Assembly: GCA_963792515.1 (NCBI GenBank)
Contig: CAWBWG010000007.1
Coordinates: 48,171 to 112,170 of the forward strand
From: an uncultured Acidobacteriota bacterium
Lineage (GTDB): Bacteria; Acidobacteriota; Terriglobia; Acidiferrales; UBA7541
Reading direction: 5' to 3'
Length of the DNA: 64,000 nucleotides
The notes below the pieces were generated by a model that ran no database searches, was not told the DNA's origin, and saw nothing but the letters and a program-made list of their open reading frames with translations. This document shows, in pieces, positions 1 to 33,090 of this stretch (positions are counted from its first letter, which is position 1; each line of letters opens with the position of its first letter). Both the position numbers and the translations under genes were made by a program.

Positions 1-326
1 GTGACGCTCACCGTTCCGTTGTCCGATATCGTAGTGCAAGGCTGCCCCGGCGAGGGGCGGCTCGGTGGGATCACAGCCAGTGGATTCCGCGCCAGTGATC
101 GCGACAGAGCCGGTGGCAGCTGTGCCTGGCGGAGTGTCACTCTGCTCCGCACCTCCGATTACTACCGATCCGGTTCCAGGGGTGCCCTGAGTGGTAGTGA
201 CTGTGAGCCCGCCTGCTTCCAAGGACGTCAACCATGCACGAGAATTATAGGCGAGAGCTTCGGTGACCCCGTTGCCGAGCGCTCGTTGGGTGGGCGAACC
301 GAATGCGCTGTACTGCACTTCCCGAG
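1..326 (-). other. continuation of the RHS coding sequence in another frame, open to the left window edge
   Basis: My translation of the reverse complement of 1-360, in the frame whose last codon is 3..1, gives ..EVQYSAFGSPTQRALGNGVTEALAYNSRAWLTSLEAGGLTVTTTQGTPGTGSVVIGGAEQSD.. with no stop. It joins the 245..3688 frame at about 308-325 if one base is removed. Confidence 0.7.
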
Positions 327-3300
327 AGGAGGTTCGCGGGGTGATTCGCGTCTGAAAGGCTGCTGGTGAGGCTTTGTATCCGGGTGGCGCCATCGTAAAC
401 GGAGGTAAGGGTTACGCCAAAGCCGTTTGTTTCTGAGGTGACATCGCTCGCGAGATCGTATCCAAAAACTAGCGGAACATAGCTCGTGCCACAATTTGTG
501 GGCGTACATTGCCACTCGTTTAGAGTCCTGCCGAGCTTGTCATAGCTGAAGTATGTCTGCGCACCGGTAGTGGTTGCCGCGACCATGCGCCCGACTGCGA
601 ACGCAGGAGTGATACCACTCGGGCAACCTCCGAACGGGCAAGCGTCATATGAGAATGCAACCGATGGAGTTGAGCCGTCATTGTAGCTTTTAGCCGACAA
701 CCGATTGAGTTGCTCATAGGTGTAAGTCGTCTTGATTCCGCGAGCATCGGTCTTTGTTGCTAAATTGCCATCGGCGTCATACGTGTAGGTGGTCGGAGTG
801 GTGGGAGTGTTGGATTCCGGATTAACGGAACTCGTCAATTCGCCGAGGGAGTCGAAAACAAAAGATCGTGCGACGAGGCCGCCCTGGGACGCCGCAGTCA
901 AGTTGTTAAGGACGTCATAGCCGTAGGTAGTGAGGAATCCGGTGCCAGAAATGAGCAGCCCGCAGGACGCAGGAGTGCCTCCGGTTCCCATTTGGGTCGC
1001 GCTGCTGATTTCGCAGACGTTGGTGAGGCGGCCCAAGCCGTCGGTCTGAGAGATGCGCTGGACGGAACTGGTGCCGTTGCCCTCGTCAGTGACTTGGGTG
1101 GCTGAGCCCTTATTCGCGGTGGTGATGAAGCTCCCGTCTGGGTGGGTCACCTGAATGACGCGTCCTAACGGGTCGTAGGTGTACGCGGTGAATCCGTCGG
1201 TTGATGAACCCGTGCTGCGATAGGGGTTTGTAACGGTGGCCCTCCGGCCCAGAGGATCGTAGGTGGTATCGACGTAGTCGGTGCCTTGGGGGTCTGATGT
1301 GAGCTCGGTCCGAGTTACCCTTCCGAGGCCATCCACGACGACAATCGTCACGAGATTGGAAGTAGAGGTGATTTTTTTCGTGGTGGTGACGCTAAGAGGC
1401 ACGGTGGATTCGTTGTAAGTGATGTTTGTTTGGGGGATAAGGCCGGTGGAATCGGGTGGATAGGTAGTCTGAGTGAGGCGGGACAACAAGTCGTACGTGA
1501 AGGTCGTCGTTTGAGTGTTGGCGTCGATCGCTGACGCGCGGGTTCCAGTGCAAGAGTTATAGGTGCTTTTGGTCATCTGGTTAAGGGGATTCGTGATGGT
1601 TGTGACGTACGCGGCGGAGACGGCGGGTGCGCAGGTAGCGTTCGACCAGGAATCGGCGTAACTGTATTTGGTAAGTAGGCCGCGAGGATCCGTCGTTTGG
1701 ACGATATTTCCTGAGTCGTCGTATTGATGGCGAGTTGTGAGTGTGGCGCCGTCGGTACTGCGCCATTTTTGGACGGCGGTGACATTTCCGCGGGTAGTGA
1801 CGGAGGAGCTAAATGCCGTATCGTGTTGAACTGCGCCGCTCGCAGCGATTGAAGTCGTGTAATTGTCATACTCGTACGTTGTCTTCGCGAATTGGGTGGT
1901 GCCCGAACCCACGTAAACTATCTCCGAAGCTTTGCGGTCTAGGATATTCAGGCTCGTCGAGGTGTAATCGACCGAGTTGATCGGATTGACGGCCAACCAG
2001 GTGTAGTCCGTGCAGCGGGTAGGAGAGCTCGCACCGAAATCGTACTCGCATTTCGCGAGGACGTTGTCGAAAAGGACGGTCCCCACATAGAGCGTAGCGG
2101 TGTTGTAGCTATAAGTGACTTTGGAGACCTGGTTTGGACTAACGTCAGCCAAGGTAGTGGTTTCCTGAATTGGGAGTGAGCCCGGAGTCGGACGCCCATT
2201 GCCGTCGAGCGCGGAATATGTGGTCACGATTGACCGCAGCAGTGTGGAGGAACCCTGGTAGATCGAACGCGACATCTCCCGCGGGAACTGGAAGGACGGG
2301 AAAATGACAGGAGGGTCGGAGCTGTTACGTGAACTAAAACCATAAAGTGTTTTGTTTCCGAGAGCGTCCACGACGGACTCGGCCGAGTTACTTACCGTTG
2401 TGCTTCCAATCGCCGGGGTGTAGGTGGTAGTGGCCTCCTCACCTGTTGTGCAACCTCCGGAAGGATCGGAGCAAACGTGGCGGGCAATGACTTCCCGATA
2501 TGACGCCGCGACGCTCGGGGGAGCGGTGCAGCCGTCGGGGCATTGAGCGACAGTTTGTAGAGGAGCTTCCCACCAGTGGGTGAAGGTTTGGAAGTCGTAG
2601 CGCGTGTACCCGCCCGTCGGATATGTGATCTTGTTCAGTTCGCCGTCGGCGGAATTGTATGTAAACGTGTAGGATCTGCCATTTGGTAGGCGCACCGAGC
2701 TGAGAGCGCTGAACGAAGTCGGACCAACCCCACCTGCAACGCTGGGCAACGAAAGGTCTAAATTTACATTCTGCGTGGCGTATGTGAAGGAGATGGTCCG
2801 GACCGTTCCGCTCGAGTCTTTATAGGTGAAGCCGGTTGGTATGGTTTGGTTAAAGGTCGCGGTAAGAGTGCGGTTAAGGCTGTCTGTGATGGTTGACACG
2901 GAGACGCCGTTACTTGCTGCTATCGTGATCCAATTGCCGTTGGTGTCCTCTATTTTGCTTGCCATGACATCGAAATTCCCGATCTGGTCCGTACTGTAAG
3001 AGACTGGAAACTGAATTATCGTGCCGTCTTTCAGGCGCGCAATGGCGACAGTAGAACCAGTTGTGTCGAGGACGATATAGGAATTGTCGGCCGTCTTTAC
3101 TGGGCCGGGTGAGTTGCCCGCAGGGTAGGCGATACTTCCGCCGGCCGCGCTATAAGTAAAACAAGCCGCTTGGTCATCGAGACTCGCCGGCACATGCTTA
3201 CTTCCATCGGGGAGAACGAGAACAAAGTTGGTCCAGCAAAACTCCTTCGCTGCGCCGATGGTGGCGATGTATTTCACCGAGGCGCTGAGGACGGGGATGT

Positions 3301-3688
3301 TGAGACGCCACATTCCGTCGATATAGGGTAATTGGTTTTCGCCCTGCGGTTGCCATTCATACAGCGGAGGATTGGTCTTGCCCGTGATCTGATTATTGCC
3401 GATCAAGTTATAGAAGCTGCTGTCGTATTCCAGCGCGAGAGTGAGATCGTGACCGTTCCGTCCGGGCAGCGAGATGAGAGGAACCTGAAGGTTTAAATTA
3501 CCTGACGCGAGAGAAATATTCTCTCTCACGCCACCGTACGATTGGTAGGGCGAGACGCCGGTTTGATCATTAAGCGGCGCGACGGCCTGGCCAAATGCCG
3601 GGGTTGTCGGGGTCAACGCGGTGATTACTATTAAACAGAACGCTGCGACGAAATATCGAGTTCGTGCGGTCATCTTGATCGCCCCCAA
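245..3688 (-). CDS. RHS / YD-repeat family protein (secreted, polymorphic-toxin-type shell); frame broken near its 3' part
   Basis: 1147-aa ORF. Signal-like N-terminus MTARTRYFVAAFCLIVITALTPTTPAFGQA. Many YD-type repeats, e.g. TYTYDADGNLATKTDARGIKTTYTYEQLNRL, YTYDPLGRV, FSYDKLGR. Motif recognition only. Confidence 0.85.
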   Translation of the reverse strand: MGAIKMTARTRYFVAAFCLIVITALTPTTPAFGQAVAPLNDQTGVSPYQSYGGVRENISLASGNLNLQVPLISLPGRNGHDLTLALEYDSSFYNLIGNNQITGKTNPPLYEWQPQGENQLPYIDGMWRLNIPVLSASVKYIATIGAAKEFCWTNFVLVLPDGSKHVPASLDDQAACFTYSAAGGSIAYPAGNSPGPVKTADNSYIVLDTTGSTVAIARLKDGTIIQFPVSYSTDQIGNFDVMASKIEDTNGNWITIAASNGVSVSTITDSLNRTLTATFNQTIPTGFTYKDSSGTVRTISFTYATQNVNLDLSLPSVAGGVGPTSFSALSSVRLPNGRSYTFTYNSADGELNKITYPTGGYTRYDFQTFTHWWEAPLQTVAQCPDGCTAPPSVAASYREVIARHVCSDPSGGCTTGEEATTTYTPAIGSTTVSNSAESVVDALGNKTLYGFSSRNSSDPPVIFPSFQFPREMSRSIYQGSSTLLRSIVTTYSALDGNGRPTPGSLPIQETTTLADVSPNQVSKVTYSYNTATLYVGTVLFDNVLAKCEYDFGASSPTRCTDYTWLAVNPINSVDYTSTSLNILDRKASEIVYVGSGTTQFAKTTYEYDNYTTSIAASGAVQHDTAFSSSVTTRGNVTAVQKWRSTDGATLTTRHQYDDSGNIVQTTDPRGLLTKYSYADSWSNATCAPAVSAAYVTTITNPLNQMTKSTYNSCTGTRASAIDANTQTTTFTYDLLSRLTQTTYPPDSTGLIPQTNITYNESTVPLSVTTTKKITSTSNLVTIVVVDGLGRVTRTELTSDPQGTDYVDTTYDPLGRRATVTNPYRSTGSSTDGFTAYTYDPLGRVIQVTHPDGSFITTANKGSATQVTDEGNGTSSVQRISQTDGLGRLTNVCEISSATQMGTGGTPASCGLLISGTGFLTTYGYDVLNNLTAASQGGLVARSFVFDSLGELTSSVNPESNTPTTPTTYTYDADGNLATKTDARGIKTTYTYEQLNRLSAKSYNDGSTPSVAFSYDACPFGGCPSGITPAFAVGRMVAATTTGAQTYFSYDKLGRTLNEWQCTPTNCGTSYVPLVFGYDLASDVTSETNGFGVTLTSVYDGATRIQSLTSSLSDANHPANLLSGSAVQRIRFAHPTSARQRGHRSSRL

Positions 3689-4052
3689 TCAAGCTCGGCA
3701 GACCCAAACTATTAGATCAATAACGCAATCGCCGTGTACTTTATCTCAGGTTACTTGACAGTCAAGTGAATTCTGCCGAAGTGCGTTATATCGGCAATAG
3801 ATAACCAGTTCTTGCTATGGCGCGTCGAATTCTACTTCGGGGTTAAATCAGGAGGTAAGCGTATAAATCGGAGGCCGAAGAGTTGCTCTGGTGTCTTCAG
3901 CTAGTCTACGCCCCGTGCAAATTCTCCGATAACATGGTCAGTTGCTCAGCCGTCTTGTTTTTGTCCAGCTAATTGAATGCAATGACCGAATGCAGTTTCA
4001 ACAATCAGTTGATTGTTGAACGCGTCGCCGCGCGACTTTCCGTCGCGTCGAA

Positions 4053-4668
4053 TCAGTCGTTTACGGGAGCGATTTCAGAGGGGATTTTTGAACGCACTGG
4101 AACGGCCGCGTGGACCGTGCCGACCGAAACACCCAGCGTCTTGGCAATCGCGCGCCACGGCTGGCCGGACGCGCGCAGCACGGCAATCCTCGAAGCATCG
4201 ACGGCGACGCGCGGCCGTCCGAGTGTTTTCCCTTTGGCGCGTGCGTTCCGCAGTCCGGCTCGGACGCGTTCCACGATCAGGCTGCGTTCTAGCTCGGCCA
4301 CGGCGCCCAGGACGGTGAAGACCATCTTGCCGGCGGGAGTCGACGTGTCCATCTGCTCCGAGAAGGAAACGAAGTCGATCCCGAGGGCCTTGAACGTCTC
4401 AAGCGCCCGCAGCAAGTGAGAGACGGAGCGAGCGAACCTGTCGAATCGCCAGACGCACACGACATCGAATCGCCGCTTGTGGGCGTCGGCGATCAAACGG
4501 TTGAGCTCCGGCCGGGAATCCTTCGTGCCGCTCACGCCCGCGTCAACGTACTCGCCCGCGATCTCCCAGCCGCGTGCCTGCGGCGAATTGCTGTAGCTCG
4601 CGCGTCTGTAGCGTCACGTCCTGGCCGTGGTTCGTCGTCGAGACTCGCGCGTAGATTGCGGCTCTCAT
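4053..4668 (-). pseudogene. serine recombinase (resolvase/invertase family), single frameshift
   Basis: ATG at 4668 gives MRAAIYARVSTTNHGQDVTLQTRELQQFAA (catalytic-Ser motif YARVST), then a premature stop. ORF 4053..4535 supplies the rest (..GVSGTKDSRPELNRLIADAHKRRFDVVCVWRFDRFARS..RAGLRNARAKGKTLGRP.. plus a C-terminal HTH). Total length is 616 nt = 3n+1, with the junction near 4576-4582. Confidence 0.8.
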
Positions 4669-4901
4669 TTGGCGTCCGCCTTCGGGCCGGGCTTCTGCGT
4701 GGCCTTGACCTTGCGGCCTTTGGCGATGTCCGCGTCCGTCCAGCGCCAGAGCGTGCGGCCGCCGCCCATCGGCGAGTACCTTCGACGGCGCGAATCAATC
4801 CGAGAGCAAGCCATCGGTTGAGCGTCCGAAACGAGACGCCAATCTTCGTCGGCCGCGGCTTTCGTGCTGTACGTCTTCTGCATCGTTGTCCCTCTCCGGC
4901 C

Positions 4902-5538
4902 CTACAGCGCCATTAGCTCGACTTCCAGTCGCCCCAGGCAATCGCGGACGTTGTTGCGGCATTCTTTCGAGAGCCGCGCGAAGTCTGGCCCGTTCCCGTT
5001 TCCGCCTTCCGCGTGCCACACCTTGTCGAGATACTCGGCGATCTCTCCGGCCATCCCGTAGCTTGAGAAGTCTATCGGTAGGCATCGGCTCAGGAATCGC
5101 GGCTCTAGTCCGTCCGTCGAATTGCAGGTGAACACAAACACGGTTCCCTTGGGCGCGTCCGTCGAGTCGAGTTTCGAGAGCAAGGCGAGTTGCGCCGCGC
5201 GGGACGCGGAATCCACTTCGTCGATCAGCACAAAATGGAATCCGCCAGTCAGCGGAACGTACTGGCAGATGCGGCAGATTTCCTCAAGGTTCTCCAGGTT
5301 GCACTTCTGCGAGCCCAGATGATGGAACTCCGCGCCCATTTCCTCGGCCATAGCCATCGCCATCGAAGTCTTGCCGACTCCCGGCGGCCCGAAGAATAGA
5401 AACGAGCACGCGTAGGGATTGCGCCGCAAACTTGGCCAGGACGCGCTTGGCCTTGGAGAGTCCGACAAACTCCGCCACCTTGCGCGGACGATACTTCTCG
5501 CTCAGGCGAACGGGAAACGCAAACGTGGGGGTGGTCAT
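4902..5538 (-). pseudogene. AAA+ ATPase, clamp-loader/RFC-small-subunit-like, single frameshift
   Basis: ORF 5284..5538 starts MTTPTFAFPVRLSEKYRPRKVAEFVGLSKAKRVLAKFAA. ORF 4902..5468 continues ..NPYACSFLFFGPPGVGKTS (Walker A), FVLIDEVD (Walker B) and FLSRC (SRC arginine-finger box). Span is 637 nt = 3n+1, junction near 5421-5425. Confidence 0.75.
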
Positions 5539-5910
5539 TGGCCACCCCCCTTGAGTGCTTCCGTCTGCGAGACGTGAAACACGGTCGTCGTCCAGGGACG
5601 GCGGATAACCTTGCGCTCGCCAGTGTCCTGGTCGATTTCCTTGCTGCGGCAGTCAATGAACGTCACGACCTTGACGCCATGCTCGCCGCGACGCACGACA
5701 CGTCCTAGTGCTTTCCATGCGTCGAACGTGAACACGTTCTCTCGCGGCTTGATCTCAGACTCGGGAATACCTTTCGCCGCGAATCCCTGGAAGATCGCGG
5801 GAAAGTTAGTGAGCGATTGGCCGGAGACAGCGCGCGTGAGTGCTTCTTGTCGGTGACTGCGATTCCTTGCCTTGCGGATGGACGGTTGATAGATTCGGGC
5901 TAGCTTCCAT
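5535..5910 (-). pseudogene. ArdC-N-terminal-like (DUF1738-type ssDNA-binding) small protein, probably frame-broken
   Basis: ORF 5535..5735 reads FTFDAWKALGRVVRRGEHGVKVVTFIDCRSKE.., which resembles the ArdC N-domain. That frame stays open upstream (..QEALTRAVSGQSLTNFPAIFQGFAAKGIPESEIKPRENV) but has no start codon. An ATG at 5910 lies in another frame. Span is 376 nt = 3n+1. Its stop overlaps the AAA+ start (ATGA at 5535-5538). Confidence 0.45.
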
Positions 5911-6262
5911 TGTGACTCACCTCACTTTGGGAGTTAGGCTCTGTCGGATGTTGCTAGCATCCGGCGGAGCCGTTCTGTTTCTAACACTACATATGCCACA
6001 ATGTACGGAAACGTGTCAAGAGAAAAATGGCGACGCGCGAAAAATAGTTGAGAGCCGCGCAAACTTTCGCGCGATCTTACGGGGATTTTCGGCGGAGTTT
6101 ACGGAGCACCGTAAATGCGGTTTGCGCGCGAAATCAAAATGCGAAATGGCGTGCGGTCGGCGATGGCTGAGTTGTCCGGCGCGGGGGCATGGCGACGACG
6201 GGGACATCTCCGCGGCCTGCGAGCCACTTTCATTTTTTATTTTTTCCGCGAGCTTGGAGGTC

Positions 6263-7805
6263 CTACTTTGTTTTGCGTCTCAGCGGCTTCCCAACCGCAA
6301 GCAGAAAGATAGCGCTCTTGCCTTGCGCTTGCGGCGAAAAGAAGCTAATCACGTCATCGTCGAAGAAGGTCAGTCCGGTCGCACCCAGGTGCTGAGCATA
6401 CGCAGCCAGGTATATCCGACCGCCGATGGCGCCCGCCTCCAGCTGGACGGCGCGGTAGCCGCGGTTCCCGTAGCGCTCTAGGATGCGTTTCAAATCGGCG
6501 AGAAAGAAAATGTCTACGCAGGCGTCCGCCGGCAGCTCCTGCTGTAACCCCAAATAGCCGGCCTCGGCGCGGAAGTCGCCCTGTTTCAGAAGTTCCAAAG
6601 TGTTCCCCTCACGCCGGAAGAAGTAGGCGCCGGGCTTGAGCCCTGCACCGAATGCACGATCAGGTAAAGATCGTTGAGTTGGGTGCCGCGCGGTTCAAGG
6701 AAGTCGGCCAGAAGACCTCGCGTGGCGCGGTCTAAAATGGATGAGAGTTGTGCCGTTGTGATCGACGCCGTCTTATCGAACGTTCGAGTGGAGCCGCGGC
6801 GCAGGATGACCTGTTCGATCGTGTCCTTCGATTGTTCCTCTTCCGGCGGTGGCTGGAGGCGAACTTCCTCGCCCGCCGAAGCGGAAGATCGAAGCGTCGG
6901 TTGTTTTCTCACGCCACTGGCGGACTTCCTCTTCAGATTCAAGCGATGACGCGTCGTGCATCTGAAGCATCGCTGGATATTCGACCTCGCTCCGCGAAAG
7001 TGGGATCGTCTCCAGGCCGAGCGCCGGAGCCTCTCTGGGGCTGGCAGCGAACTCTCCGATGTGCGCCCGATCGGCACGAGGCAGAGTGAAACCTCACGCC
7101 GCGTATCGAGATCAAGCAAGCGGTTCACATCGGCGTCCACGAATCCAAGCACGATCTCAGCCGGCAGCCCCGAAGCCGCGGAAACGGCGAGCATATTCGC
7201 CAGCAGCGTGCCGTTGTCCCAACCGAAATGGCGATAGGTGCGCGCCTGGTACTTCCAAGCGTTCCGCCAGTACGTTCCGGTGCAGATTATCGTCGCGGGT
7301 GCGTGAGCCACCGCGTCTTCCTGTGCCGTCGCCTCGAGCCAGGTTCCCGCGAAAGTCACCTCTTCGCAGAAGCCGCAGCGATACATCCGCCGGATTGAAG
7401 TGATAGACACCGGCATCCAGGCCTGGGAGATCGCCAGCCACGACATACAGCTCGATCTCGTAGAGAGCTCCGGTGCAGGCTGCAGCGCGAAAGTAGATTT
7501 CTCCGTCTGGATATGCGCGCTGTTCGTAATCCCCGCCGAGAAATGGAGGATGCGCGCCAGGTCCTGAGGTCAGGGACCGCATCGGGCCGCGACGAGGGCA
7601 CTGGCTCTGAGATCGCGGAGAGCGCGGCCACCCCTGTTTGCGGCACGTCCCGCGGCAGGGGGACCGGCTCTATCGTCGGATAGACTTTGAAAGGCCGCGG
7701 CCGATTCGCCCAGTCCAGGAAATGACGATTGTTACGAATACTTGAGTATGAGTGCTTCGTGCCATCGTGGTACTGCCAAGTCGCCTCGATGTCGCGGTTT
7801 CTCAT
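6263..7805 (-). pseudogene. SagB/ThcOx-type (double nitroreductase-fold) dehydrogenase, shattered by at least 6 frame changes
   Basis: Recognisable pieces lie in alternating frames:
- MRNRDIEATWQYHDGTKHSYSSIRNNRHFLDWANRPRPFKVYP..
- LARILHFSAGIT
- QRAYPDGEIYFRAAACTGALYEIELYVVAGDLPGLDAGVYHFNPADVSLRLLRRGDFRGNLA
- EATAQEDAVAHAPATIICTGTYWRNAWKYQARTYRHFGWDNGTLLANMLAVSAASGLPAEIVLGFVD..
- MLQMHDASSLESEEEVRQWREK
- TIEQVILRRGSTRTFDK..
- LKQGDFRAEAGYLGLQQEL..YRAVQLEAGAIGGRIYLAAYAQHLGATGLTFFDDDV. Confidence 0.75.
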
Positions 7806-7988: not shown

Positions 7989-8025
7989 GGCACTTGTCCG
8001 GTAAGGCGACTTACCGGGACTTTGG
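7989..8025 (+). repeat. array-specific hairpin repeat, copy A
   Basis: GGCACTTGTCCGGTAAGGCGACTTACCGGGACTTTGG. The stem GTCCGGTAAG/CTTACCGGGAC has one bulged G. It lies about 70 nt upstream of the 8098 gene. Confidence 0.8.
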
Positions 8026-8097
8026 ACCATTGCCGAACAAATAGCAGGCGTGGTCTAATTTGGGCCCTAGTCAGTAGACAATTCCAAGGTCCGGAAC

Positions 8098-8556
8098 ATG
8101 AACAAAAATGACATTCTCATCAATCTGTCCGAGTCTGAAAATACGAGATTTGGCAACGAAGAAGACTTTGCCCTTCAAACTCTTCCTCAGAAAGTCTTTT
8201 CGGCCATTTGGGCTGTCGAATCGGAAGTCAATAACGGCGGATTCTCCCAATACTTTTCCAACGACAGCGCGGAATCAGCATCATTCGTTGTGCAAGCTCT
8301 CGAAACAGTTGGTGCTCCGAGAACCGCGAATATTTGCAATCGCGCGATAGTCACGGCTTTTCCTGGTGGACTGCCAACGACGGTGGAAACTATACGCTCG
8401 GTCGCAGATAAATTCTCCAAAGAAATTCTCGCTGAGTTGGAGCCTCTAGACCAAGAGTTTTTCTCATACCCTCACAACTTGACAGACTTGCTTTTTACAT
8501 ATGTAAGTGCGCGCCCGGAGGAGTTCGGCCCACTGACGAAACCAGATGACGCTTAG
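8098..8556 (+). CDS. DUF4375 / DMP19-like domain protein (possible immunity-type protein)
   Basis: 152 aa. The core IWAVESEVNNGGFSQYFSNDSAESASFVVQALETVGAPRTANICNRAI matches the family hallmark as I recall it (NNGGF.QYF). The gene is low in GC. Confidence 0.6.
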   Translation: MNKNDILINLSESENTRFGNEEDFALQTLPQKVFSAIWAVESEVNNGGFSQYFSNDSAESASFVVQALETVGAPRTANICNRAIVTAFPGGLPTTVETIRSVADKFSKEILAELEPLDQEFFSYPHNLTDLLFTYVSARPEEFGPLTKPDDA

Positions 8557-8572
8557 ACGCTGCTGCTCAACT

Positions 8573-8647
8573 CCTGGTTAACGCGCTTACCGGAGAAGTG
8601 GAGTACCAGAATCCAGATGTCCGGTTAGGCGACTACCCGGACTTGAG
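8573..8647. repeat. array-specific hairpin repeat, inverted doublet B
   Basis: CCTGGTTAACGCGCTTACCGGAGAAGTG (a reverse-orientation unit), 15 nt, then GATGTCCGGTTAGGCGACTACCCGGACTTGAG (a forward unit). It sits between the stop at 8556 and the next gene. Confidence 0.75.
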
Positions 8648-8672
8648 AATCCATTCTTTTCATTTCGTCGGA

Positions 8673-9068
8673 ATGCGCATACGCTCGACTGCCGTGCCGC
8701 CCTACATAAAACCTATTCCATTACTCACTTCTCTACTATTTTGGGGCTATGTCGTCTGGGCGTGGGTTGTTTGGCGCGGATCGGCCGAAACCGTTCGGCC
8801 GAGATGGAGAGCAATCACAGTGGTTGCAGGGCTATATTGCGCCACAGCATCTACTATTCTTAATGCGTTTATGTTTGTCCATGCCGTCATCACTGGAGGC
8901 TACCCTTTCTATCATCCAGTGGAGCTGTTCTGTATTCGCGTCGGCAGCCTTACGGCCTTGCTCGGAGTCACGTGCTCGATTATTGGAAGAGGGAAACCCA
9001 GACTCCACATCGCCGTAATCTCGGTCCTGAACTTCCTGGTCTGGTTCGCGGACGCGATGGCGCAGTAG
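8673..9068 (+). CDS. small integral membrane protein, hypothetical
   Basis: ORF 8598..9068. The first 25 codons are translated repeat B, so the ATG at 8673 (MRIRSTAVPPYIKP..) is preferred. About four hydrophobic segments. Confidence 0.5.
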   Translation: MRIRSTAVPPYIKPIPLLTSLLFWGYVVWAWVVWRGSAETVRPRWRAITVVAGLYCATASTILNAFMFVHAVITGGYPFYHPVELFCIRVGSLTALLGVTCSIIGRGKPRLHIAVISVLNFLVWFADAMAQ

Positions 9069-9084
9069 GCTTCTGCCCTAATTC

Positions 9085-9160
9085 CTGAATAACGCGTAAA
9101 TCGGACATGAGGAGTGCTGGTACCGCAGTGTCCGGTAAGGCGACTTACCAGGCACTTGGT
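9085..9160. repeat. array-specific hairpin repeat, inverted doublet C
   Basis: CCTGAATAACGCGTAAATCGGACATGAG .. CAGTGTCCGGTAAGGCGACTTACCAGGCACTTGG, lying between convergent genes. Confidence 0.75.
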
Positions 9161-9173
9161 AACGAGGGATTCT

Positions 9174-9836
9174 TCATGACACCCATGTGCTGCGGCGATC
9201 AATAACATGCCACACGCCGCCTGTCCTGCGCATTAGAACGTACTCGCCACTACCACACAATCCCCCGCAAAAGTGGTCAACGTACAGTAGTGCCTCGGTC
9301 TTCCTCAGATTTAGCCCAACGTGCGAGACAACAAAATACCCAAAATTGTTCGGGAATCTCGCTTCAAAGTCGTTTGTTTTAGTCCATAAGATGTCGCTCG
9401 GGTTAACGAAAACCGCCCGAGCCCCGCTTGGCAGACGCAAGTTTGCGCTGATGTTTGTCGAAAATACGCTGTTCAGGAAGAAACTGGTTCGGGTAATTCG
9501 TGATGATTGTGCAAACCAGGCGTCTGAGACGGAACTCCATCGCGATTTCAATGATTGTCCAAACCAGGATAGTCTGTCGGGCCCATTTCCATCCACAGAA
9601 CAAATGAGACAAGCTGGATTGCGCAGAACGATAATCTCGATTGTGCGCCCTGCACCCCACTGGTCCATGTCGTGCAGGACTTCTTGCGAGAAAAATGCCG
9701 AGAGAACCTCACCCGTTTCTGCTTGTGTTCGCCTCTGCTCAACAGCAAAGAGGAGTCCAGCAACCGCAAGCAGGAGACCAATTCCAGTAGTCGCGTAAAG
9801 CACAATCCTTCTAAAGCGATTTAGGCTCATGGTCAT
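9174..9836 (-). CDS. hypothetical N-terminally membrane-anchored protein
   Basis: 220-aa ORF with a TM segment IVLYATTGIGLLLAVAGLLFAV. No recognisable domain. Confidence 0.5.
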   Translation of the reverse strand: MTMSLNRFRRIVLYATTGIGLLLAVAGLLFAVEQRRTQAETGEVLSAFFSQEVLHDMDQWGAGRTIEIIVLRNPACLICSVDGNGPDRLSWFGQSLKSRWSSVSDAWFAQSSRITRTSFFLNSVFSTNISANLRLPSGARAVFVNPSDILWTKTNDFEARFPNNFGYFVVSHVGLNLRKTEALLYVDHFCGGLCGSGEYVLMRRTGGVWHVIDRRSTWVS

Positions 9837-9884
9837 AAGACTGCAGCTTGGAGTGCCATTTTACCGCTCTTAGTCCTGTCAGTG

Positions 9885-9912
9885 CCTGATAAACGCGCAA
9901 ACCGGACAAGTG
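9885..9912 (-). repeat. array-specific hairpin repeat, copy D
   Basis: CCTGATAAACGCGCAAACCGGACAAGTG. Its reverse complement CACTTGTCCGGTTTGCGCGTTTATCAGG aligns with units A-C. Confidence 0.7.
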
Positions 9913-9917
9913 AAGTT

Positions 9918-10094
9918 TTAGCCGAGGGTCTTGGCATTGAAGGTGGCGAGTTCGTCATCTTCCACGGTAAAGCTGATCTCGATTGGTTTGCAGCATACCT
10001 CGCAGTCTTCGATGTAGGTTTGGCGGCCGACCGACAAGTCCAACACCATCGAAATTTCTTCCCCACAATATGGACAGGTGAATTCGTGTTCCAC
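9918..10094 (-). CDS. CPXCG motif-containing cysteine-rich small protein
   Basis: GTG start at 10094 gives a 58-aa protein: VEHEFTCPYCGEEISMVLDLSVGRQTYIEDCEVCCKPIEISFTVEDDELATFNAKTLG. The upstream part of track ORF 9918..10337 is Arg-rich and reads through repeat E. Confidence 0.75.
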   Translation of the reverse strand: MEHEFTCPYCGEEISMVLDLSVGRQTYIEDCEVCCKPIEISFTVEDDELATFNAKTLG

Positions 10095-10154
10095 TGAACG
10101 AGAAGATACTGCAATCGATCCGGCAGGACAACGGAAGCAGCAGTCGGCCAAGTG

Positions 10155-10219
10155 CCTGATTAACCTGCAACCGGACAAGTGCCAGCTGACTCCGCCTACG
10201 GGGCGTCTCCGGAAGTTGC
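10155..10219. repeat. array-specific hairpin repeat, copy E with a degenerate partner
   Basis: CCTGATTAACCTGCAACCGGACAAGTG (reverse complement CACTTGTCCGGTTGCAGGTTAATCAGG), followed by GGGGCGTCTCCGGAAGTTGC. Confidence 0.6.
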
Positions 10220-10290
10220 AAGCTCCATTAGGGACCCTTCGGTTGTGGAACGGTACCTGTCGAGGTGCGCGGAAACGTGGTACCAGATTC

Positions 10291-10974
10291 TTAGCAGAAC
10301 TTCGCGATAGCCCGGTAGGTTGCTTCGACGTGCTCAATTGAATTGGCTATAAACGGAAGCACTGATTGTCCGCCCTCGCGAAACCTAAAATCCACCCACG
10401 TCGTGACTTTAGTTGTGGCCACGCCGTTAGGCACCGGTAGTTGGGTTGTCGGGTCAATTGGAACGCCCATTACTTTGACATCGCCAGTAAAGGTCACTCC
10501 AGATCCCCACGATACCTCACCGCTCCCAGGCCGCGTGACCGTGACGCGTCGGGATTCCGTTCTGCTTTGTTCCACGAGGTCTTGGTGCTTGTTTTTATTG
10601 TTGAGGGCGTTGAACTGGCCAAGCCAAGGATCTCGGAACGGCTGCAGTGATTCGATGATTTCGAAGACGGGCTTGCAATTCGCTGCTAGTCCCGGATAGT
10701 CGTGCCCCATCACCTGCGCAAACTGGGTCGCATTGTGCTGGATCGGAAAGTACAGCCGGCGCGGTGTCCCCCCGGCTTTGCAGAATGCCTCATGCAACTC
10801 TTGGGCTAAATAATCAAGACACGAACGAAGGTCTTCGAAAATGTGTTTGATCTCGACCTTGAGGTCTTTGCGGACGACCTGTTCATGCAGCGACGCTTCG
10901 TAGGCTGCCTTCAGCTGAGCAAAATCCCCGCGCGACTTCCGGAGCAGGGCTTCGATACTCGTTTTACGTCTCAT
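10291..10974 (-). CDS. hypothetical protein
   Basis: 227-aa ORF with non-biased composition. No domain recognised. Confidence 0.5.
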   Translation of the reverse strand: MRRKTSIEALLRKSRGDFAQLKAAYEASLHEQVVRKDLKVEIKHIFEDLRSCLDYLAQELHEAFCKAGGTPRRLYFPIQHNATQFAQVMGHDYPGLAANCKPVFEIIESLQPFRDPWLGQFNALNNKNKHQDLVEQSRTESRRVTVTRPGSGEVSWGSGVTFTGDVKVMGVPIDPTTQLPVPNGVATTKVTTWVDFRFREGGQSVLPFIANSIEHVEATYRAIAKFC

Positions 10975-11113
10975 CTATCCCAAGTCCTCTGCGGAACTAC
11001 GGCAGGCTTGAATATTGCTCCAGGAGATGAGCGCCAGAAATTCACTTCGTCCGCGGCAACTTTGGACGCGTGCAATCGGAACCAATCATAATCGGTGACC
11101 GCGACAAAGAAAT

Positions 11114-12094
11114 TCATCGAGCGACTCTCAGCAAAACGGCGTTGCGGTGAAAGTCAAGAAATTGTCGCTGGCCCTCAGTGAAGGTTCCGACGTTGATCAG
11201 CCGCTCGGTCTCGACTCCCATACTCTGCAACGAAGGTTTGTGAGCGACCGGCGAGATGATGAGAGTTCCGGAATCCTCAAACCCGATAAATCCGCGGTCG
11301 AACAAATGGTCGATACTAGGCGTCAAGAGTAGGCCGTTCTCGCCATTGAGACGCTCTTCGTTTGAGGAATCCCGCCAGGGCTTGCAGTGGCTGGCCAGAA
11401 GGTGAATCGGATTATCAACACCCGTGATGCGGCAGCGGGTTTCAATTCGCATAACACGCTGCTTAAAAAGGCCTTGGCCACGCCGGGCCCGCACAATCGC
11501 CTCTCTGTCGGTCTCTTTCACGGATGTATCGCTTTCGACTTGTTGTTCGAGCTTGCGTTCCCAAACGTCCAGGTCGTCACCCGTCACGATTCTGCCACTT
11601 TCAAGGGCGACAGGAGACTCGGCAGCGGCGATCAGTGAGCGTGCCTCTTCTCCGATCAAACCGGCGAGGACCTCCGCGAAGCTCTGAGACAGCTCTGTCA
11701 AATAGATTGACTGGATGCCGTTTCCGTTAGGCTGGAGCGGTGAGTAGCGATCCGGCAAAACAGCTCTCAAAACCCCCATGTGATCTTTGGGGCGGATTTT
11801 GTTCAAGACCTGAGAAAACGAAACGTTCACTCTCCATCCGATATTTTCCCAATTCTGCCCCACAGAGCCAAACTCAGTTGGTTTCGGACACTCCCAGCAA
11901 TAGGATTTGGCGATTCCGATGGCGGCGACTCGAGTATCTGCGAAAGAAAAGATCAGGTCGCCCGGCGAAACCTCTCGCATCGACTCGTAGAATGGATTGC
12001 GAGCGCCGTTAGCGTTGCGTTTTGGAGACCAGAGATAGCCGCCCGCGATCTCTTGGCGGAATGTTTGATTCTGGTTGACCCACCAATAACGCAT
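11114..12094 (-). CDS. HNH endonuclease (HNH_2-type) with an N-terminal PUA/EVE-like module; candidate modification-dependent restriction enzyme
   Basis: The ATG at 12094 (MRYWWVNQNQTFRQEIAGGYLWSPKRN..) is preferred over the 12280 extension. The C-terminus reads RCRITGVDNPIHLLASHCKPWRDSSNEERLNGENGLLLTPSIDHLFDRGFIGF, an HNH_2-like pattern. Confidence 0.7.
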   Translation of the reverse strand: MRYWWVNQNQTFRQEIAGGYLWSPKRNANGARNPFYESMREVSPGDLIFSFADTRVAAIGIAKSYCWECPKPTEFGSVGQNWENIGWRVNVSFSQVLNKIRPKDHMGVLRAVLPDRYSPLQPNGNGIQSIYLTELSQSFAEVLAGLIGEEARSLIAAAESPVALESGRIVTGDDLDVWERKLEQQVESDTSVKETDREAIVRARRGQGLFKQRVMRIETRCRITGVDNPIHLLASHCKPWRDSSNEERLNGENGLLLTPSIDHLFDRGFIGFEDSGTLIISPVAHKPSLQSMGVETERLINVGTFTEGQRQFLDFHRNAVLLRVAR

Positions 12095-12307
12095 CCCGAC
12101 TCCGTGCGTCGAAGGAAGCAAGGATTTCCATCTCGGGCTCTCGGCCGACTTTGGAGAATACACTACATGAACTCTTGGTGGACACATGTAGGGCAGCAGT
12201 GAAAGACACCGATGTTCGACTTGTCCGGCCGACAGAACCGCACGGCTGCTGATCCTCCATACAGTGCGGCAGAGTAGCACGACCGTTAATATCCGCCCGC
12301 CTGTATA

Positions 12308-12990
12308 ATGGCCGTCGTGAAGCTCGAACAGATCGAGGAGTTACTGGCGGCGGAAGAGTCCGAAACGTTGGAGCGAAAGCAGGGCCTGGACAGAGAGGGC
12401 CTTTGCAAATCGATGATCGCTTTCGCAAATGACATGTACGGACGCGGTTGTGGCTGGGTGATCGTTGGGCAGGCACCGGATAAATCCTTCGCTGGTCTTC
12501 AGGTGGGAGACGACGAAGCGCAGCGGATCATTTCAGACATCGCGAGAGACCGATGCACGCCAGCTATTCCCGTGTCTGTTGAATGTTTCCTGAAAGATGG
12601 TAAGAGGCTCGCAATCGTCGAAGTTCGCGCGAGTCCTGCGCGGCCTCATTTCGCCGGTAAAGCGTGGGTACGGATGGGCAGCACCACCCGTCAAGCCACG
12701 GACGCTGAGATTATTCTTCTCCGGGCGGTTGAGGAGAATCGCAAGATCGCTATACTGAAACGATGGTTCGACGAAGGCAAGACTACGGTTGTTCTCTGGC
12801 AAATGGCCGCACCGGGTCAAGACTTCGCGCGGTCACCTGGGTACAGCAGGTAAAACTGTTGGAAGTCAATCAGAACTGGATCGTGGTTTACGCCGGCAGC
12901 ACGAGGCGCGCTTTTCCATACGATGAATTTAACGTCGGCTGGGATCCGGAGCAAGACCTTCCCCAGATCCGATACCACGGTGGACGGTAG
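12308..12990 (+). pseudogene. AlbA_2 (Schlafen-type) DNA-binding domain protein, probable frameshift near 12825-12835
   Basis: ORF 12308..12853 reads EESETLERKQGLDREGLCKSMIAFANDMYGRGCGWVIVG.. . ORF 12763..12990 continues plausibly as VTWVQQVKLLEVNQNWIVVYAGSTRRAFPYDEFNVGWDPEQD. Span is 683 nt = 3n+2. Confidence 0.6.
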
Positions 12991-19359: not shown

Positions 19360-19584
19360 ATTCCTCCTTGACAGTCGCGATGCTACTCCTTACCCTAATG
19401 CTCGTGCAACGTGGCCATATCAAGACCGTAACAGAACTTGCCGTTCTGGTGCCCTGCGATGCGAAGGACAAAGACGGCTTAGCGACATTTCTGTCGGAGT
19501 TGGCCGGAACTCAGCCGGTCCGAGTTGTTACTCTGGGTGATCTCAAGTCCGATCCACGCAAAATTTAAGCAAGCGCTGAGTACG

Positions 19585-20193
19585 ATGTGGGACTACGAAC
19601 GGGTGCAGTTCGAAGCGGTGGTCGCCTTACTCAGCGCGTTGCGAAGAAAAGACAAGCTGGCAATCAGCCGCGCCCGAGGCTTCGTCACGAACGCACTCGC
19701 GCTCAAGCGAGAAGGGGACAGGAGACTCGGCATTAGCCCGGCGCTAGATGATGACCTAGATTTTGGGCGGGTTCTTATTCATGTTTTTGGCCTGGAGCCG
19801 GGACAGGAGAAGGAAGCCATTGAGCGGTGGAACGGTTACCGTCACGGTCCGAAAGCGGATGCAAACCATCGGTGGCTACTATCGCAGCTAATGTCTGAAG
19901 CGCTCGATTCTGTGCGTTTGGTGCTCTGGTCGTCGGGAAAGCATCTTCGACCTGCGCTCTACTGCCCTCAGGCCAAGGCCGCTCTTTACGCGATGCTCTT
20001 GATGAAGATCGCCGCTGGGCGGGGATGGGGAGTGTGTCCGTATTGCGGTCAGTTCTTTGCTCAAAAGCGTTCCGACCAGAATTACTGCACGATTGCACAT
20101 CGTGAGGCGCATCGAGTAGCACGGTGGCGTGCAGCGAGAGTATCGCAATCGAAACAGAGAGGCGGGTCATATGGCACTCGTAAAACGCGGTAG
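19585..20193 (+). CDS. hypothetical protein with a C-terminal CPYCG..C..AH zinc-ribbon-like motif
   Basis: ATG at 19585 within ORF 19525..20193. The C-terminus reads WGVCPYCGQFFAQKRSDQNYCTIAHREAHRVARW. It overlaps the integrase start by 23 nt. Confidence 0.5.
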   Translation: MWDYERVQFEAVVALLSALRRKDKLAISRARGFVTNALALKREGDRRLGISPALDDDLDFGRVLIHVFGLEPGQEKEAIERWNGYRHGPKADANHRWLLSQLMSEALDSVRLVLWSSGKHLRPALYCPQAKAALYAMLLMKIAAGRGWGVCPYCGQFFAQKRSDQNYCTIAHREAHRVARWRAARVSQSKQRGGSYGTRKTR

Positions 20194-21400
20194 GACGTGG
20201 CACACACAATTCTACGTTAACGGTGCTCGCTACCGACAGTCGCTTCGCACAACCGACTGGCGCGAAGCGCTTCAGCGCGAGAAAGAACTGATCTCGCAGG
20301 CGAGTGTCGGGAAGCTCGCGCCGTCGAGTCAGCAGTTCGCCCGACTCGCCTTTTCCGTGGCGGCGGATCGATACATCGAAGATCGTAAGGCCTATCTGGC
20401 GCCTCGAAGCGTGCGTACAGAACAAGAGCGCCTGAAGGGTCTGCGATTATTCTTTGGTGCGACGCCGTTAACCCGCATCAGTTCGGACTCGGTTCGAGAA
20501 TATGTCGCCAAGCGCAAGAACGCGGGACTGAGCAATCGCACGGTGAATATGGAGACTGGCTGCCTTGCTCGCGTTCTAAAGAGGGCGAAACGTTGGCATC
20601 TGATCGCAGAGGATATAAAGCCGCTGCCCGAGGGACGGAGCGTGGGTAGGGCATTGACGCATGAAGAGAAAGTGAAGCTACTAAAAGCTGCTGCTCGCAA
20701 ACCAGAGTGGATGCTTGCGCGGCTTGCTGCAATCTTGGCACTGAATACCACGATGCGAGGGTGCGAGATCCGCGGACTACGATGGTGCGACGTCGATTTC
20801 ATAGAACGGACACTCACCGTGCGCCGAAGTAAAACACAGGCGGGGGAGCGCGTGATTCCGCTCAACGGCGACGGGTGGGGAGCGATTCTCGAGTTACGGG
20901 AGAGAGCAAAACAGCTTCTCGGCGTCGAGCCGCGCTCCCAGTGGTTTGTATTTCCTCATGGGGAGGGGCAAGGGCCCGTTACCCACACGAAAACGAGACC
21001 TGGGCCAAAATCGGTAACTGTGAAACCCGACCCAACCAAGCCTATGATTTCGTGGCGGACGGCATGGCGAAAAATTGCCAAGGAAGCCGGACTCCCCGGG
21101 CTGCGGTTTCATGATCTCCGGCACCACGCCGTGACAGAGCTTGCCGAGGGGCAGGCCAGCGATCAAATAATACGGTCGATTGCGGGGCACGTTTCACTTC
21201 GAATGCTAGAGCATTATTCTCATATCAGGTTGGACGCCAAGCGCAAGGCGCTTGATGCTCTCTCAGGTGGACCACCGGACTCAGTTACGACACAACTCAC
21301 GACACAAATTTCGAATCGATCGCCGCAAGCGATTGAAAAGAATGGCGGGGCCGACGGGGTTCGAACCCGCGACCTCCTGCGTGACAGGCAGGCGTTCTAA
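20171..21400 (+). CDS. tyrosine recombinase / phage-type integrase
   Basis: The ATG at 20171 gives MALVKRGRTWHTQFYVNGARYRQSL (typical integrase N-terminus). Catalytic pattern: CEIRGLRWCDVDF (Arg), LRFHDLRHHAVT (HxxR), GHVSLRMLEHYSHI (Tyr). The last 58 nt of the ORF run into tRNA-Asp on the opposite strand. Confidence 0.9.
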   Translation: MALVKRGRTWHTQFYVNGARYRQSLRTTDWREALQREKELISQASVGKLAPSSQQFARLAFSVAADRYIEDRKAYLAPRSVRTEQERLKGLRLFFGATPLTRISSDSVREYVAKRKNAGLSNRTVNMETGCLARVLKRAKRWHLIAEDIKPLPEGRSVGRALTHEEKVKLLKAAARKPEWMLARLAAILALNTTMRGCEIRGLRWCDVDFIERTLTVRRSKTQAGERVIPLNGDGWGAILELRERAKQLLGVEPRSQWFVFPHGEGQGPVTHTKTRPGPKSVTVKPDPTKPMISWRTAWRKIAKEAGLPGLRFHDLRHHAVTELAEGQASDQIIRSIAGHVSLRMLEHYSHIRLDAKRKALDALSGGPPDSVTTQLTTQISNRSPQAIEKNGGADGVRTRDLLRDRQAF

Positions 21401-21420
21401 CCAAGCTGAACTACGGCCCC
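21343..21420 (-). tRNA. tRNA-Asp (anticodon GTC)
   Basis: The reverse complement folds as GGGGCCG TA GTTC AGCTTGGTTA GAAC G CCTGC CTGTCAC GCAGG AGGTC GCGGG TTCGAAC CCCGT CGGCCCC G CCA. Confidence 0.9.
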
Positions 21421-26134: not shown

Positions 26135-26148
26135 TCGCGATGCGCGGA

Positions 26149-27990: not shown

Positions 27991-28005
27991 GTCCCCCTGC
28001 TCTCT

Positions 28006-29001: not shown

Positions 29002-29067
29002 AGCGTTTTCAGGCTACTGACTGAGAAAACAAGAGGAGAGATTTCGCTCTCCCCTCGTAGGTTGAAG

Positions 29068-29946: not shown

Positions 29947-30083
29947 GAACAAACCTCCCAATCGTGCTGCAGCACTTCCATTGCTACTGAAACTGCTGCT
30001 ACGAAAGCCGGACAAGTAGGCCTGCTCTTGTTCGTCTCTCTTCTTGGTTGTCACCCGACCAACCAAAAACTCTTGCCCGCCGG

Positions 30084-31358: not shown

Positions 31359-31372
31359 TGCTTCACTCCAAA

Positions 31373-32812: not shown

Positions 32813-33090
32813 TGGCGCACCCGCATTGGTGCTATAGCAGAGCCTCGCTCGTCGCACATTGCTCCTGCTGTGAATAGGACGCACGTCCCGCGGAGGGAGA
32901 AATGCTGCCCTAGCGTACTGCGCCGGGGGGATCGTTGCAAGAGCCGTGCCATTTGTGGGTTTCGCCCCGAGGGCTGCTGGCCCACGAACTCCCCTGAAAC
33001 GCTCGCCAGGTTGAAAGTTGCGGAAAGAGGTCAAAGAGGCTCACAGTACCGCAATGGAATTCGGCAACCATGGAATTCCCGAAACGGAAA

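Follow-up and report, generated by a model that had tools for sequence, protein, structure and literature searches.

The 64-kb stretch of DNA from an uncultured Acidobacteriota bacterium analysed here (the window, to which all coordinates refer unless a locus is named) raises a simple question: what is the imperfectly palindromic unit of about 35 nt that stands in every gap of a run of five small genes? An earlier note on this DNA had described the run as cassette-like and had considered an integron, an immunity-gene array and a locally amplified family of repetitive extragenic palindromic (REP) sequences. Our leading reading, to which we give a probability of roughly 45%, is that these arrays are a chromosomal analogue of the dif modules of Acinetobacter plasmids, with sites of like centre recombined by a Xer-family recombinase. 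What it draws upon was observed directly, namely the anatomy of the sites, the rules of their arrangement, the resemblance of their arms to dif, their targeting by insertion sequence (IS) elements, and the break-points found when related loci were compared.

By repeat and profile searches we found seven copies of the unit within 7989-10186 and none elsewhere in the 64 kb (Table 1), confirming the seven that had been placed at 7989-10219. The profile used to scan the window, built from 140 copies from other genomes, recovered units A, B1, C2, D and E at E = 1e-10 to 8e-7. Unit B2 is completed in a sister contig (L001), where an extra A restores CAGG. The degenerate unit C1 has a profile E-value of about 1 in the 64 kb, or 0.06 if the search is limited to the region. 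Besides the seven units, no profile match in the 64 kb was better than E = 0.3, and two further copies proposed earlier, a decayed one at 11048-11085 and a degenerate partner of unit E, received no profile support. A search with the 25-nt core of unit A, allowing up to 3 mismatches, gave two matches in the window and none in 100 shuffles.

The plus-strand and minus-strand copies had been taken for one unit in two orientations; the copies are real, but they are two distinct subtypes, alpha (+) and beta (-), differing in their 6-bp centre (GGCGAC in the alpha units of the window, GCGCGT in the beta units). Both classes parse as an 11-bp arm, a 6-bp centre and an inverted 11-bp arm, 28 bp in total. 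Parsed in this 11-6-11 form, the core of unit A (7994-8021) is TTGTCCGGTAA-GGCGAC-TTACCGGGACT and that of unit D is TTGTCCGGTTT-GCGCGT-TTATCAGGCAC, while in unit orientation the core of B1 reads TTCTCCGGTAA-GCGCGT-TAACCAGGAGT and C1 reads ATGTCCGATTT-ACGCGT-TATTCAGGAAT. Four of the units stand as doublets, B1 and B2 around a 13-nt spacer (doublet B), and C1 with C2 (doublet C). Unit A, gene 1 and unit B1 make up a complete module of the form alpha(+)...beta(-), and the array of the window, short and decayed in part, amounts to three complete modules plus two further beta sites. Units were present in all gaps among the five array genes and in the gap upstream of gene 1, as had been claimed, with none in the gap between the gene for the 227-aa protein and the HNH gene (10975-11113). 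The array is also AT-richer than its surroundings, as had been seen, with a G+C content of 51.4% at 7989-10290 against 57.9% in the rest of the window.

The hairpin with a bulged G that had been drawn for the unit held for some of the copies. Unit A folds at -8.5 kcal/mol (z = -2.7, bulged G included), and among single units only the plus-strand copies fold well; units D and E fold no better than shuffles. Doublet B forms a single long hairpin (z = -3.5), and doublet C folds no better than shuffles. No Rfam family was observed at the units at gathering or permissive thresholds, and a promoter and terminator scan gave no feature coincident with any of them.

Arrangement of the units in other genomes

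An exact-pattern scan with one genome per species listed at least 120 stretches from about 85 metagenome-assembled genomes (MAGs), so that the repeat once called private belongs to a family shared by many genomes, and the cassette-like architecture recurs with it. Almost all of the listed stretches are from Terriglobia MAGs (Candidatus Acidiferrales, Acidoferrum, Sulfotelmatobacter and others), with several dispersed loci per genome among the listed matches, such as six in MFD05521.bin.2.5. The host contigs are chromosomal Acidobacteriota sequences of up to 4.5 Mb, and the unit had no match among the viral contigs of IMG/VR or the plasmids of PLSDB. Six stretches (L003, L013, L030, L067, L023, L079) belong to four MAGs whose labels name other phyla (Chthoniobacterales, Dormiibacterota, Baltobacteraceae and Methylomirabilota), with two contigs of 374 and 666 kb; either transfer across phyla or an error of binning or labelling could explain them.

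The main rival explanation is that the units form a family similar to REPs, bacterial interspersed mosaic elements (BIMEs) or REP doublets forming hairpins (REPINs), that is, extragenic palindromes spread or kept as head-to-head heterodimers. They would have been spread by a REP-associated tyrosine transposase (RAYT) acting in trans, or would serve the host in mRNA 3'-end protection or nucleoid-protein binding; the arrays would then be repeat-dense accessory regions, with break-points at the repeats arising merely from short homology. We regard this as unlikely on balance, although much about the units fits it. They are short (20-40 nt) extragenic imperfect palindromes, often in inverted dimers, and at ~35 nt they occupy all gaps between the array genes of the window, while in other genomes the distance from stop codon to unit has a median of ~30 nt. 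Head-to-head heterodimers with conserved spacers are known for REPs, and enterobacterial REP dimers are exclusively heterodimers (PMC3733652). REP families are spread over whole genomes in high copy number; of the units, several dispersed loci per genome were among the listed matches, and the window has none outside the array. Within one genome alpha and beta carry common arm variants, a sign that they co-evolve with a single binding protein or are still being homogenised; in a REP family the same pattern would be concerted evolution.

Other features do not fit. A GTAG or CGTC tag marks nearly all described REP families (PMC3733652), and the consensus of our units (CACTTGTCCGGT...CAGGAGTTRR) has neither. 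The recurrent ORF families contained no RAYT, and nor did the 130 module ORFs or the scanned window proteins, in a search that covered ~1 Mb and outside which a single-copy gene could lie. In the profile scan, none of the ~55 other intergenic gaps of the window carried a unit. The stem shows no compensatory covariation (see below), and the absence of terminator-like features at the units also speaks against a REP family.

The rules of arrangement were also difficult to reconcile with REPs. A profile search identified 366 units in 121 sequences, 141 of them alpha and 189 beta. Every one of the 49 close pairs that were typed was beta(-)/alpha(+) with the CACTTG ends face to face, and alpha/alpha and beta/beta pairs numbered 0. 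Head-to-head intervals fell between -14 and 20 nt (model coordinates) in 61 of 86 cases, with a mode of 8-9. Tail-to-tail intervals were always gene-sized (91 of 91 at 328 nt or more), so that the gene-less tail-to-tail pairs of BIME clusters are absent. Independent insertions would lead to random relative orientation; among neighbours at gene distance, 69 were alpha(+)...beta(-) versus at most one of the opposite polarity, and polarity was single in 111 loci and mixed in 6. A further 50 same-strand neighbours lay at module distance, their partner missing or undetected. Polarity is a local property, as two loci only 24 kb apart (L005 and L038) are opposite. We rejected a replichore-linked polarity given these opposite arrays and the lack of any tie to GC skew or contig position. 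The amplified REP family suggested earlier is still a live rival, but one that leaves the strict alpha/beta and polarity rules unexplained.

Modules mostly contain a single gene. One ORF covers a median of 84% of the module length, and its orientation relative to the alpha-to-beta direction is random (32 versus 29). The 130 module ORFs were assigned to 113 Pfam families, including hydrolases, SpoIIE phosphatases, DinB, SnoaL and TonB_C. Doublet spacers are 11-16 nt long, partly palindromic (0.49 versus 0.26 in shuffles) and fall into few sequence classes. Long arrays occur, such as the adjacent blocks L009 and L014 with 17 units in 16 kb, as do isolated single modules (e.g. L040 7236-7873), and arrays start or end with unpartnered half-sites.

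Gene content between the repeats varies while the repeats are kept, a test proposed in the earlier note and supported by two comparisons. A segment of 3,434 bp (L029 3059-6491, L040 3832-7265), with genes for a hexapeptide acetyltransferase and a pyrroloquinoline quinone-dependent dehydrogenase that includes a cytochrome c domain, shows 99% identity between two species representatives, which implies its recent transfer. Identity starts in a beta centre and stops in an alpha centre, and beyond these points the flanks are unrelated, with only the repeats in common. The second comparison concerned gene 3, which has more than 270 homologues. In the window and in three further loci (L127, L128 and L129; 75-85% identity) this gene has a beta unit upstream and an alpha unit exactly 14 nt after its stop codon. 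The four modules lie in four different neighbourhoods with unrelated genes, except that L129 has a gene 2 homologue (56% identical) beside the gene 3 homologue, and similarity stops at the outer arm. The gene 1 module was likewise found, together with its alpha and beta sites, in L124 and L125. Its counterpart in L122 has a POTRA-domain gene on one side and a glmS-like gene (GATase and SIS domains) on the other; when compared to the window, the inner arms and centres are ~95% identical, the upstream outer arm ~50%, and the downstream outer arm is not recognisable.

IS elements were observed within the unit centres. An IS110-family element is inserted at AACGC^GC of a beta unit centre in L124, and L125 has the empty site (5360-5396). 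L124 carries this insertion of ~1.5 kb twice, at 3823-5396 and 9034-10653. The same IS110 family was found in 20 of the 120 listed loci, adjoining or inside units. IS30-family elements (HTH_38 plus rve) lie in the alpha centres of L032 (3826-5143), L063 (5906-7178) and L100 (5448-6713), in each case splitting the alpha unit in two. IS elements, those of the IS110 family among them, are well known for inserting into REPs (PMC1525189), and the insertions in our units are likewise a point in favour of a REP family. The beta centre is a natural and precisely defined target for IS110-family elements, which are of the bridge-RNA type, and is of potential interest for genome engineers.

Likeness to dif and competing readings

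The consensus of the alpha class is TTGTCCGGTAA-CCCGAC-TTATCAGGAGT, with NSCGAC as the class centre, and that of the beta class is TTGTCCGGTTA-GCGCGT-TAATCAGGACT. We compared these with three acidobacterial dif sites, all computational predictions (PMC3025954, supplement). The predicted Koribacter site consists of the XerC arm ATGTCCGATAA and the centre CAGATA followed by TTATGTTAACT, and the second and third sites are ACTTCCGATAA-CGAATA-TTATGTCAACT and ACGTCTGATAA-TGAATA-TTCTGCATTTC (PMC3025954). Nine of the 11 positions of the Koribacter XerC arm are identical to the alpha head arm, and its match to the head-arm profile has p = 3e-5 among random 11-mers of the window. For the three XerC arms together, p ranged from 3e-5 to 5e-3 against the head arm, and for their reverse complements from 6e-5 to 4e-4 against the tail arm. 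The acidobacterial XerD arms did not match the unit arms (p = 0.05-0.5), the dif sites of E. coli and B. subtilis did not match the unit, and no canonical dif site was found in the window or in any retrieved locus. Judged by its sequence, the unit resembles a dif-type core site in which both arms are XerC-like. One stem position is variable on both sides and shows no compensation (A-T 44, A-A 32, T-A 28, T-T 25), and doublet partners agree no more than lineage effects explain. The lack of compensatory change favours a double-stranded protein-binding site over a hairpin, with few variable positions behind this comparison.

If the arrays are dif-like modules, they could work as follows. The repeating order is alpha(+), gene, beta(-), a spacer of ~11-16 nt, alpha(+), gene, beta(-), giving single-gene modules of one polarity. 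A Xer-family tyrosine recombinase encoded elsewhere in the genome would bind both arms and exchange strands in the centre, and recombination would take place between like sites only, alpha with alpha and beta with beta. Because the alpha sites of an array are all direct repeats, a gene could be excised together with its beta site and spacer; this segment would form a circle and could insert again at a different alpha site. One cross-over in alpha and one in beta would swap a single segment between molecules. Neighbouring inverted sites differ in their centre, so gene inversion would not be expected, and two alternating heterospecific centres would account for both the uniform polarity and the random orientation of the genes. 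It is from the sites and their arrangement that we infer recombinase binding, the point of strand exchange and actual mobility. A broader claim, which we consider possible if somewhat doubtful, is that Terriglobia carry an unrecognised, lineage-wide cassette system of single genes between two heterospecific dif-like sites, served by a housekeeping-type Xer recombinase. Were this true, it would amount to integron-like shuffling without a dedicated integrase, and would give the dif modules of plasmids their first chromosomal counterpart outside Acinetobacter.

Several observations weigh against the arrays being dif-like modules. No recombinase was found beside the arrays in the 120 loci, none could be tied to the sites, and the window held no candidate. 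When the 120 loci were searched iteratively for tyrosine recombinases, one phage-type family of 5 members came up, none of them at an array edge, where the ORFs were ordinary genes. The second arm of the unit is not XerD-like, so that a canonical XerC/XerD pair is not implied, and the dif references are predictions from distant Acidobacteria, not from this order, that may differ from the dif site of the host. The segment shared by L029 and L040 was the sole near-identical one found to have its break-points in unit centres, and homologous recombination between 35-nt repeats could yield it. Outer arms were missing in 27% of unpartnered units versus 25% of paired ones, and the predicted excess was absent. 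The conserved, part-palindromic spacer and the fixed geometry of the doublets are not needed by this mechanism and hint at a folded or composite site. Finally, 58 of 80 gene 1 homologues have no unit nearby, a number that also favours a REP family. Neighbourhoods of these homologues vary too, so varied neighbourhoods alone are weak evidence, and we set aside the gene 1 (DMP19-like) family as a poor test of mobility.

We next considered whether the modules could be non-autonomous transposons with one passenger gene each (mobile insertion cassettes), in which alpha and beta would be terminal inverted repeats with CACTTG outward, the transposase would be encoded elsewhere and arrays would be stacked insertions. 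The outward ends are indeed conserved (5'-CACTTGTCCGG...CCGGACAAGTG-3'), gene and both units stay together across neighbourhoods with similarity stopping at the outer ends, and isolated single modules such as that of L040 occur. However, by-eye inspection of ~40 module flanks and of the four gene 3 modules showed no target-site duplication or direct repeat, and a fixed spacing between modules with a conserved spacer is not expected from independent insertions. The segment shared by L029 and L040 is bounded by units with heads inward and has its break-points in the centres rather than at the ends, and L122 keeps the inner arms and loses the outer ones, the opposite of what transposon termini predict. 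No recurrent associated transposase was observed other than the IS elements interrupting units. We consider this explanation improbable.

A lower probability still, of a few parts in a hundred, was given to a cluster of attC sites lacking integron-integrases (CALIN), in which each beta/alpha doublet would be one attC site folding as a single strand and recombined by an IntI from elsewhere. Acidobacteria are known integron hosts (PMC8352920), and the doublets are imperfect palindromes of ~90 nt, inside the attC size range, with two helices around an internal loop where the alpha and beta centres differ, like the R box, unpaired spacer and L box of attC. The beta arm contains GTTAAYC, near the R' consensus GTTRRRY, and polarity is single, spacing gene-sized and content diverse. 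The attC criterion is a pair of complementary R'' (RYYYAAC) and R' (GTTRRRY) boxes with AAC and GTT invariant; in our units these invariants never occur together, one strand having TTAAC with CTTAY and the other TAAG with GTTAAY. The units are unrelated to the attC model published for Acidobacteria (consensus GCCUAAC-AACUC-GUUgAAGC...). The integrase of the window, its only tyrosine recombinase, scored 23 bits versus the TIGR02249 cut-off of 265, leaving the window without an integron integrase, which a CALIN does not require, and the tyrosine recombinases of the 120 loci are limited to the five phage-type members described above. Integron cassettes have one site each, 3' of an ORF that runs in the direction of the array; here, unpartnered half-sites begin or end arrays, doublet partners lack covariation beyond lineage effects, and doublet C does not fold better than shuffles. 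Given the absence of IntI, the incomplete AAC/GTT invariants, the unrelated attC consensus and the random gene orientation (32 versus 29), we excluded a canonical integron, and the attC sites suggested earlier were not borne out.

Hardly credible, finally, is a set of orphan immunity genes belonging to the nearby RHS toxin, or an immunity island associated with a recombinase like those of Bacteroidales. In its favour, the small array genes are mutually unrelated, an RHS-repeat gene lies close by and the island has defence-type genes (an HNH endonuclease and a Schlafen/AlbA_2 protein). Against it, searches of Pfam, NCBIfam and PADLOC linked none of the five array proteins to an immunity or defence family (Pfam gave only DMP19 and CPXCG). 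The minus-strand RHS gene runs past the left window edge with its toxin end, beyond which any cognate immunity gene would also lie, and the array is on the other side, upstream of the 5' end of the gene. Elsewhere the repeats bracket enzymes, regulators and transporters that have no toxin in their vicinity, and the array has no recombinase next to it. Gene position and content exclude the RHS immunity array that the earlier note had suggested, and literature searches on DUF4375 as an immunity protein returned nothing relevant.

Array genes and the surrounding island

The array sits in the low-GC part of a genomic island beside a tRNA gene (Table 1), 4.3 kb upstream of the 5' end of the RHS gene. 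The tRNA-Asp gene is at 21343-21420, and a search of 1-21600 gave no att direct repeat matching the tRNA. From 21.7 to 64 kb the scanned ORFs are ordinary chromosomal genes (multihaem cytochromes, pyruvate dehydrogenase E1, transporters), with no units among them.

Table 1. Repeat units, array genes and island features of the window
Feature	Position	Strand	Description	Basis
Unit A	7991-8025	+	alpha; array start, no partner	profile E = 1e-10
Unit B1	8565-8602	-	beta; ~10-15 nt past gene 1 stop	profile E = 1e-8
Unit B2	8614-8647	+	alpha; tail arm short by 1 nt	profile weak, E = 0.03
Unit C1	9081-9112	-	beta, degenerate	repeat search, 72% identity within its repeat family
Unit C2	9126-9159	+	alpha; end 14 nt from gene 3 stop	profile E = 4e-7
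Unit D	9877-9913	-	beta, no partner; between gene 3 start and gene 4 stop	profile E = 1e-10
Unit E	10147-10183	-	beta, damaged centre (C-AGGT); last of array	profile E = 8e-7
Gene 1	8098-8556	+	152 aa, DMP19-like (DUF4375, PF14300)	Pfam E = 2e-23
Gene 2	~8598-9068	+	small membrane protein, start uncertain	ORF list; no family match
Gene 3	9174-9836	-	220 aa, N-terminal membrane anchor, no family; module C2-D	ORF list
Gene 4	9918-10097	-	~58 aa, cysteine-rich CPXCG zinc ribbon (PF14255)	Pfam E = 2e-20
Gene 5	10291-10974	-	227 aa, no family	ORF list; Pfam, NCBIfam, PADLOC without match
RHS-repeat gene, 5' part	245-3688	-	toxin end off left window edge	
Truncated serine recombinase	4056-4535		island	
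Generic tyrosine integrase	20129-21397		abuts tRNA-Asp, tRNA-Val	

The sister contig L001 (ENA ERZ25039537, 1.63 Mb) is 98% identical overall and shares the array, with few small differences that include the base lost from unit B2 of the window. Gene 2 was called in L001 as 82 aa with its end at 9068. Gene 1 has 3 nt missing in L001 (window 8158-8160) and 1 nt extra (at 8241), and was called as 103 aa in another frame; this may reflect either inactivation in that strain or a sequencing error. A homologue of gene 4 (83% identical) was observed in L052 inside a longer repeat-bounded segment. Gene 5 has unit E on its 3' side only, its 5' side being without a unit.

The island differs from L001 in two blocks. 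Window 4002-7801 shows ~6-8% divergence and many 1-nt indels, with both flanks almost identical, and 19500-20540, over the 5' part of the integrase, has ~90 mismatches in 1 kb; the other parts of the island are nearly identical. A nitroreductase-like gene of the window is split into three overlapping minus-strand ORFs (6586-7446, 7157-7582 and 7356-7805), either as a pseudogene or through an assembly indel error. The HNH endonuclease (PADLOC HNH model, E = 6e-24) and the divergent Schlafen/AlbA_2 protein adjoin the array at 11114-12853 and may be a defence gene pair. Outside the island, large multihaem cytochromes (Paired_CXXCH, MtrC/MtrF-like domains), an NHL-repeat protein and a SurA-like chaperone are encoded at 23073-33034, a cluster that may be an extracellular electron-transfer locus.

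Comparison with known systems

Searches of the available literature for the motif, and for acidobacterial REPs or miniature inverted-repeat transposable elements, found no description of it. The architecture appears to be a novel form of gene modules bounded by recombination-type sites, with a mechanism that we infer. If the units are recombination sites, they would provide a third route of modular gene exchange in Acidobacteriota beside integron cassettes and plasmid dif modules, one that is chromosomal and borrows a Xer-type enzyme. Terriglobia are among the most abundant soil bacteria, and such a route could help to explain the large, paralogue-rich and poorly syntenic genomes of a soil phylum that is hard to culture. 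The alpha and beta sites offer a simple signature for spotting accessory genes in soil metagenomes. They also bear on the origin of integrons and dif modules from Xer/dif, and their strictly paired heterospecific sites recall engineered recombinase-mediated cassette exchange.

With REPs, BIMEs and REPINs the units share short palindromes near stop codons, heterodimers, lineage variants and a role as hot spots for IS110-family and other IS elements (PMC3733652, PMC1525189). They differ in being untagged, in their strict local polarity, in the absence of gene-less tandem clusters, and in repeats that stay with individual genes across neighbourhoods. If they are nonetheless REP-like, they are an untagged family outside the GTAG and CGTC groups with an unusually strict architecture.

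Like integron cassettes, the arrays keep to one polarity, and their genes are mostly single, highly diverse and promoter-less-looking, with imperfect palindromes of ~60-140 nt between them, and the natural excision product would be a circle with one gene and one composite site. The IS1111-attC group comprises elements of the IS110/IS1111 type that target attC sites, and the centres of our units are likewise targeted by IS110-type elements. Unlike integrons, the arrays have no intI, attI or Pc, half-sites occur alone, and each half is a complete palindromic core site.

The closest parallel is with the dif modules of Acinetobacter Rep_3/OrfX plasmids. In those modules site orientation alternates, recombination takes place between like spacers only, and single modules are replaced by two cross-overs (PMC13141974). 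Both systems have a 28-bp site of 11-6-11 form with TAA/TTA beside the centre, alternating sites such that every segment lies between inverted sites (PMC13141974), and one or few accessory genes in either orientation. The spacer of dif modules sets which sites recombine, and we propose the same role for the alpha and beta centres. Break-points of replaced segments lie inside the sites in dif modules, as in the single L029/L040 case here. IS1202-family elements target pdif sites, which parallels the IS110 and IS30 insertions in our unit centres (PMC10132070). Dif modules depend on XerC/XerD, whereas here the role of a recombinase is suggested by the comparison of sequences. The arrays differ from the plasmid modules in being chromosomal and in occurring in Acidobacteriota, and both arms of their sites are XerC-like, with the XerD-type arm absent. 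They also have only two classes of centre, which alternate strictly, and every second segment is usually a mere conserved spacer of ~11-16 nt, so that the sites stand in fixed doublets.

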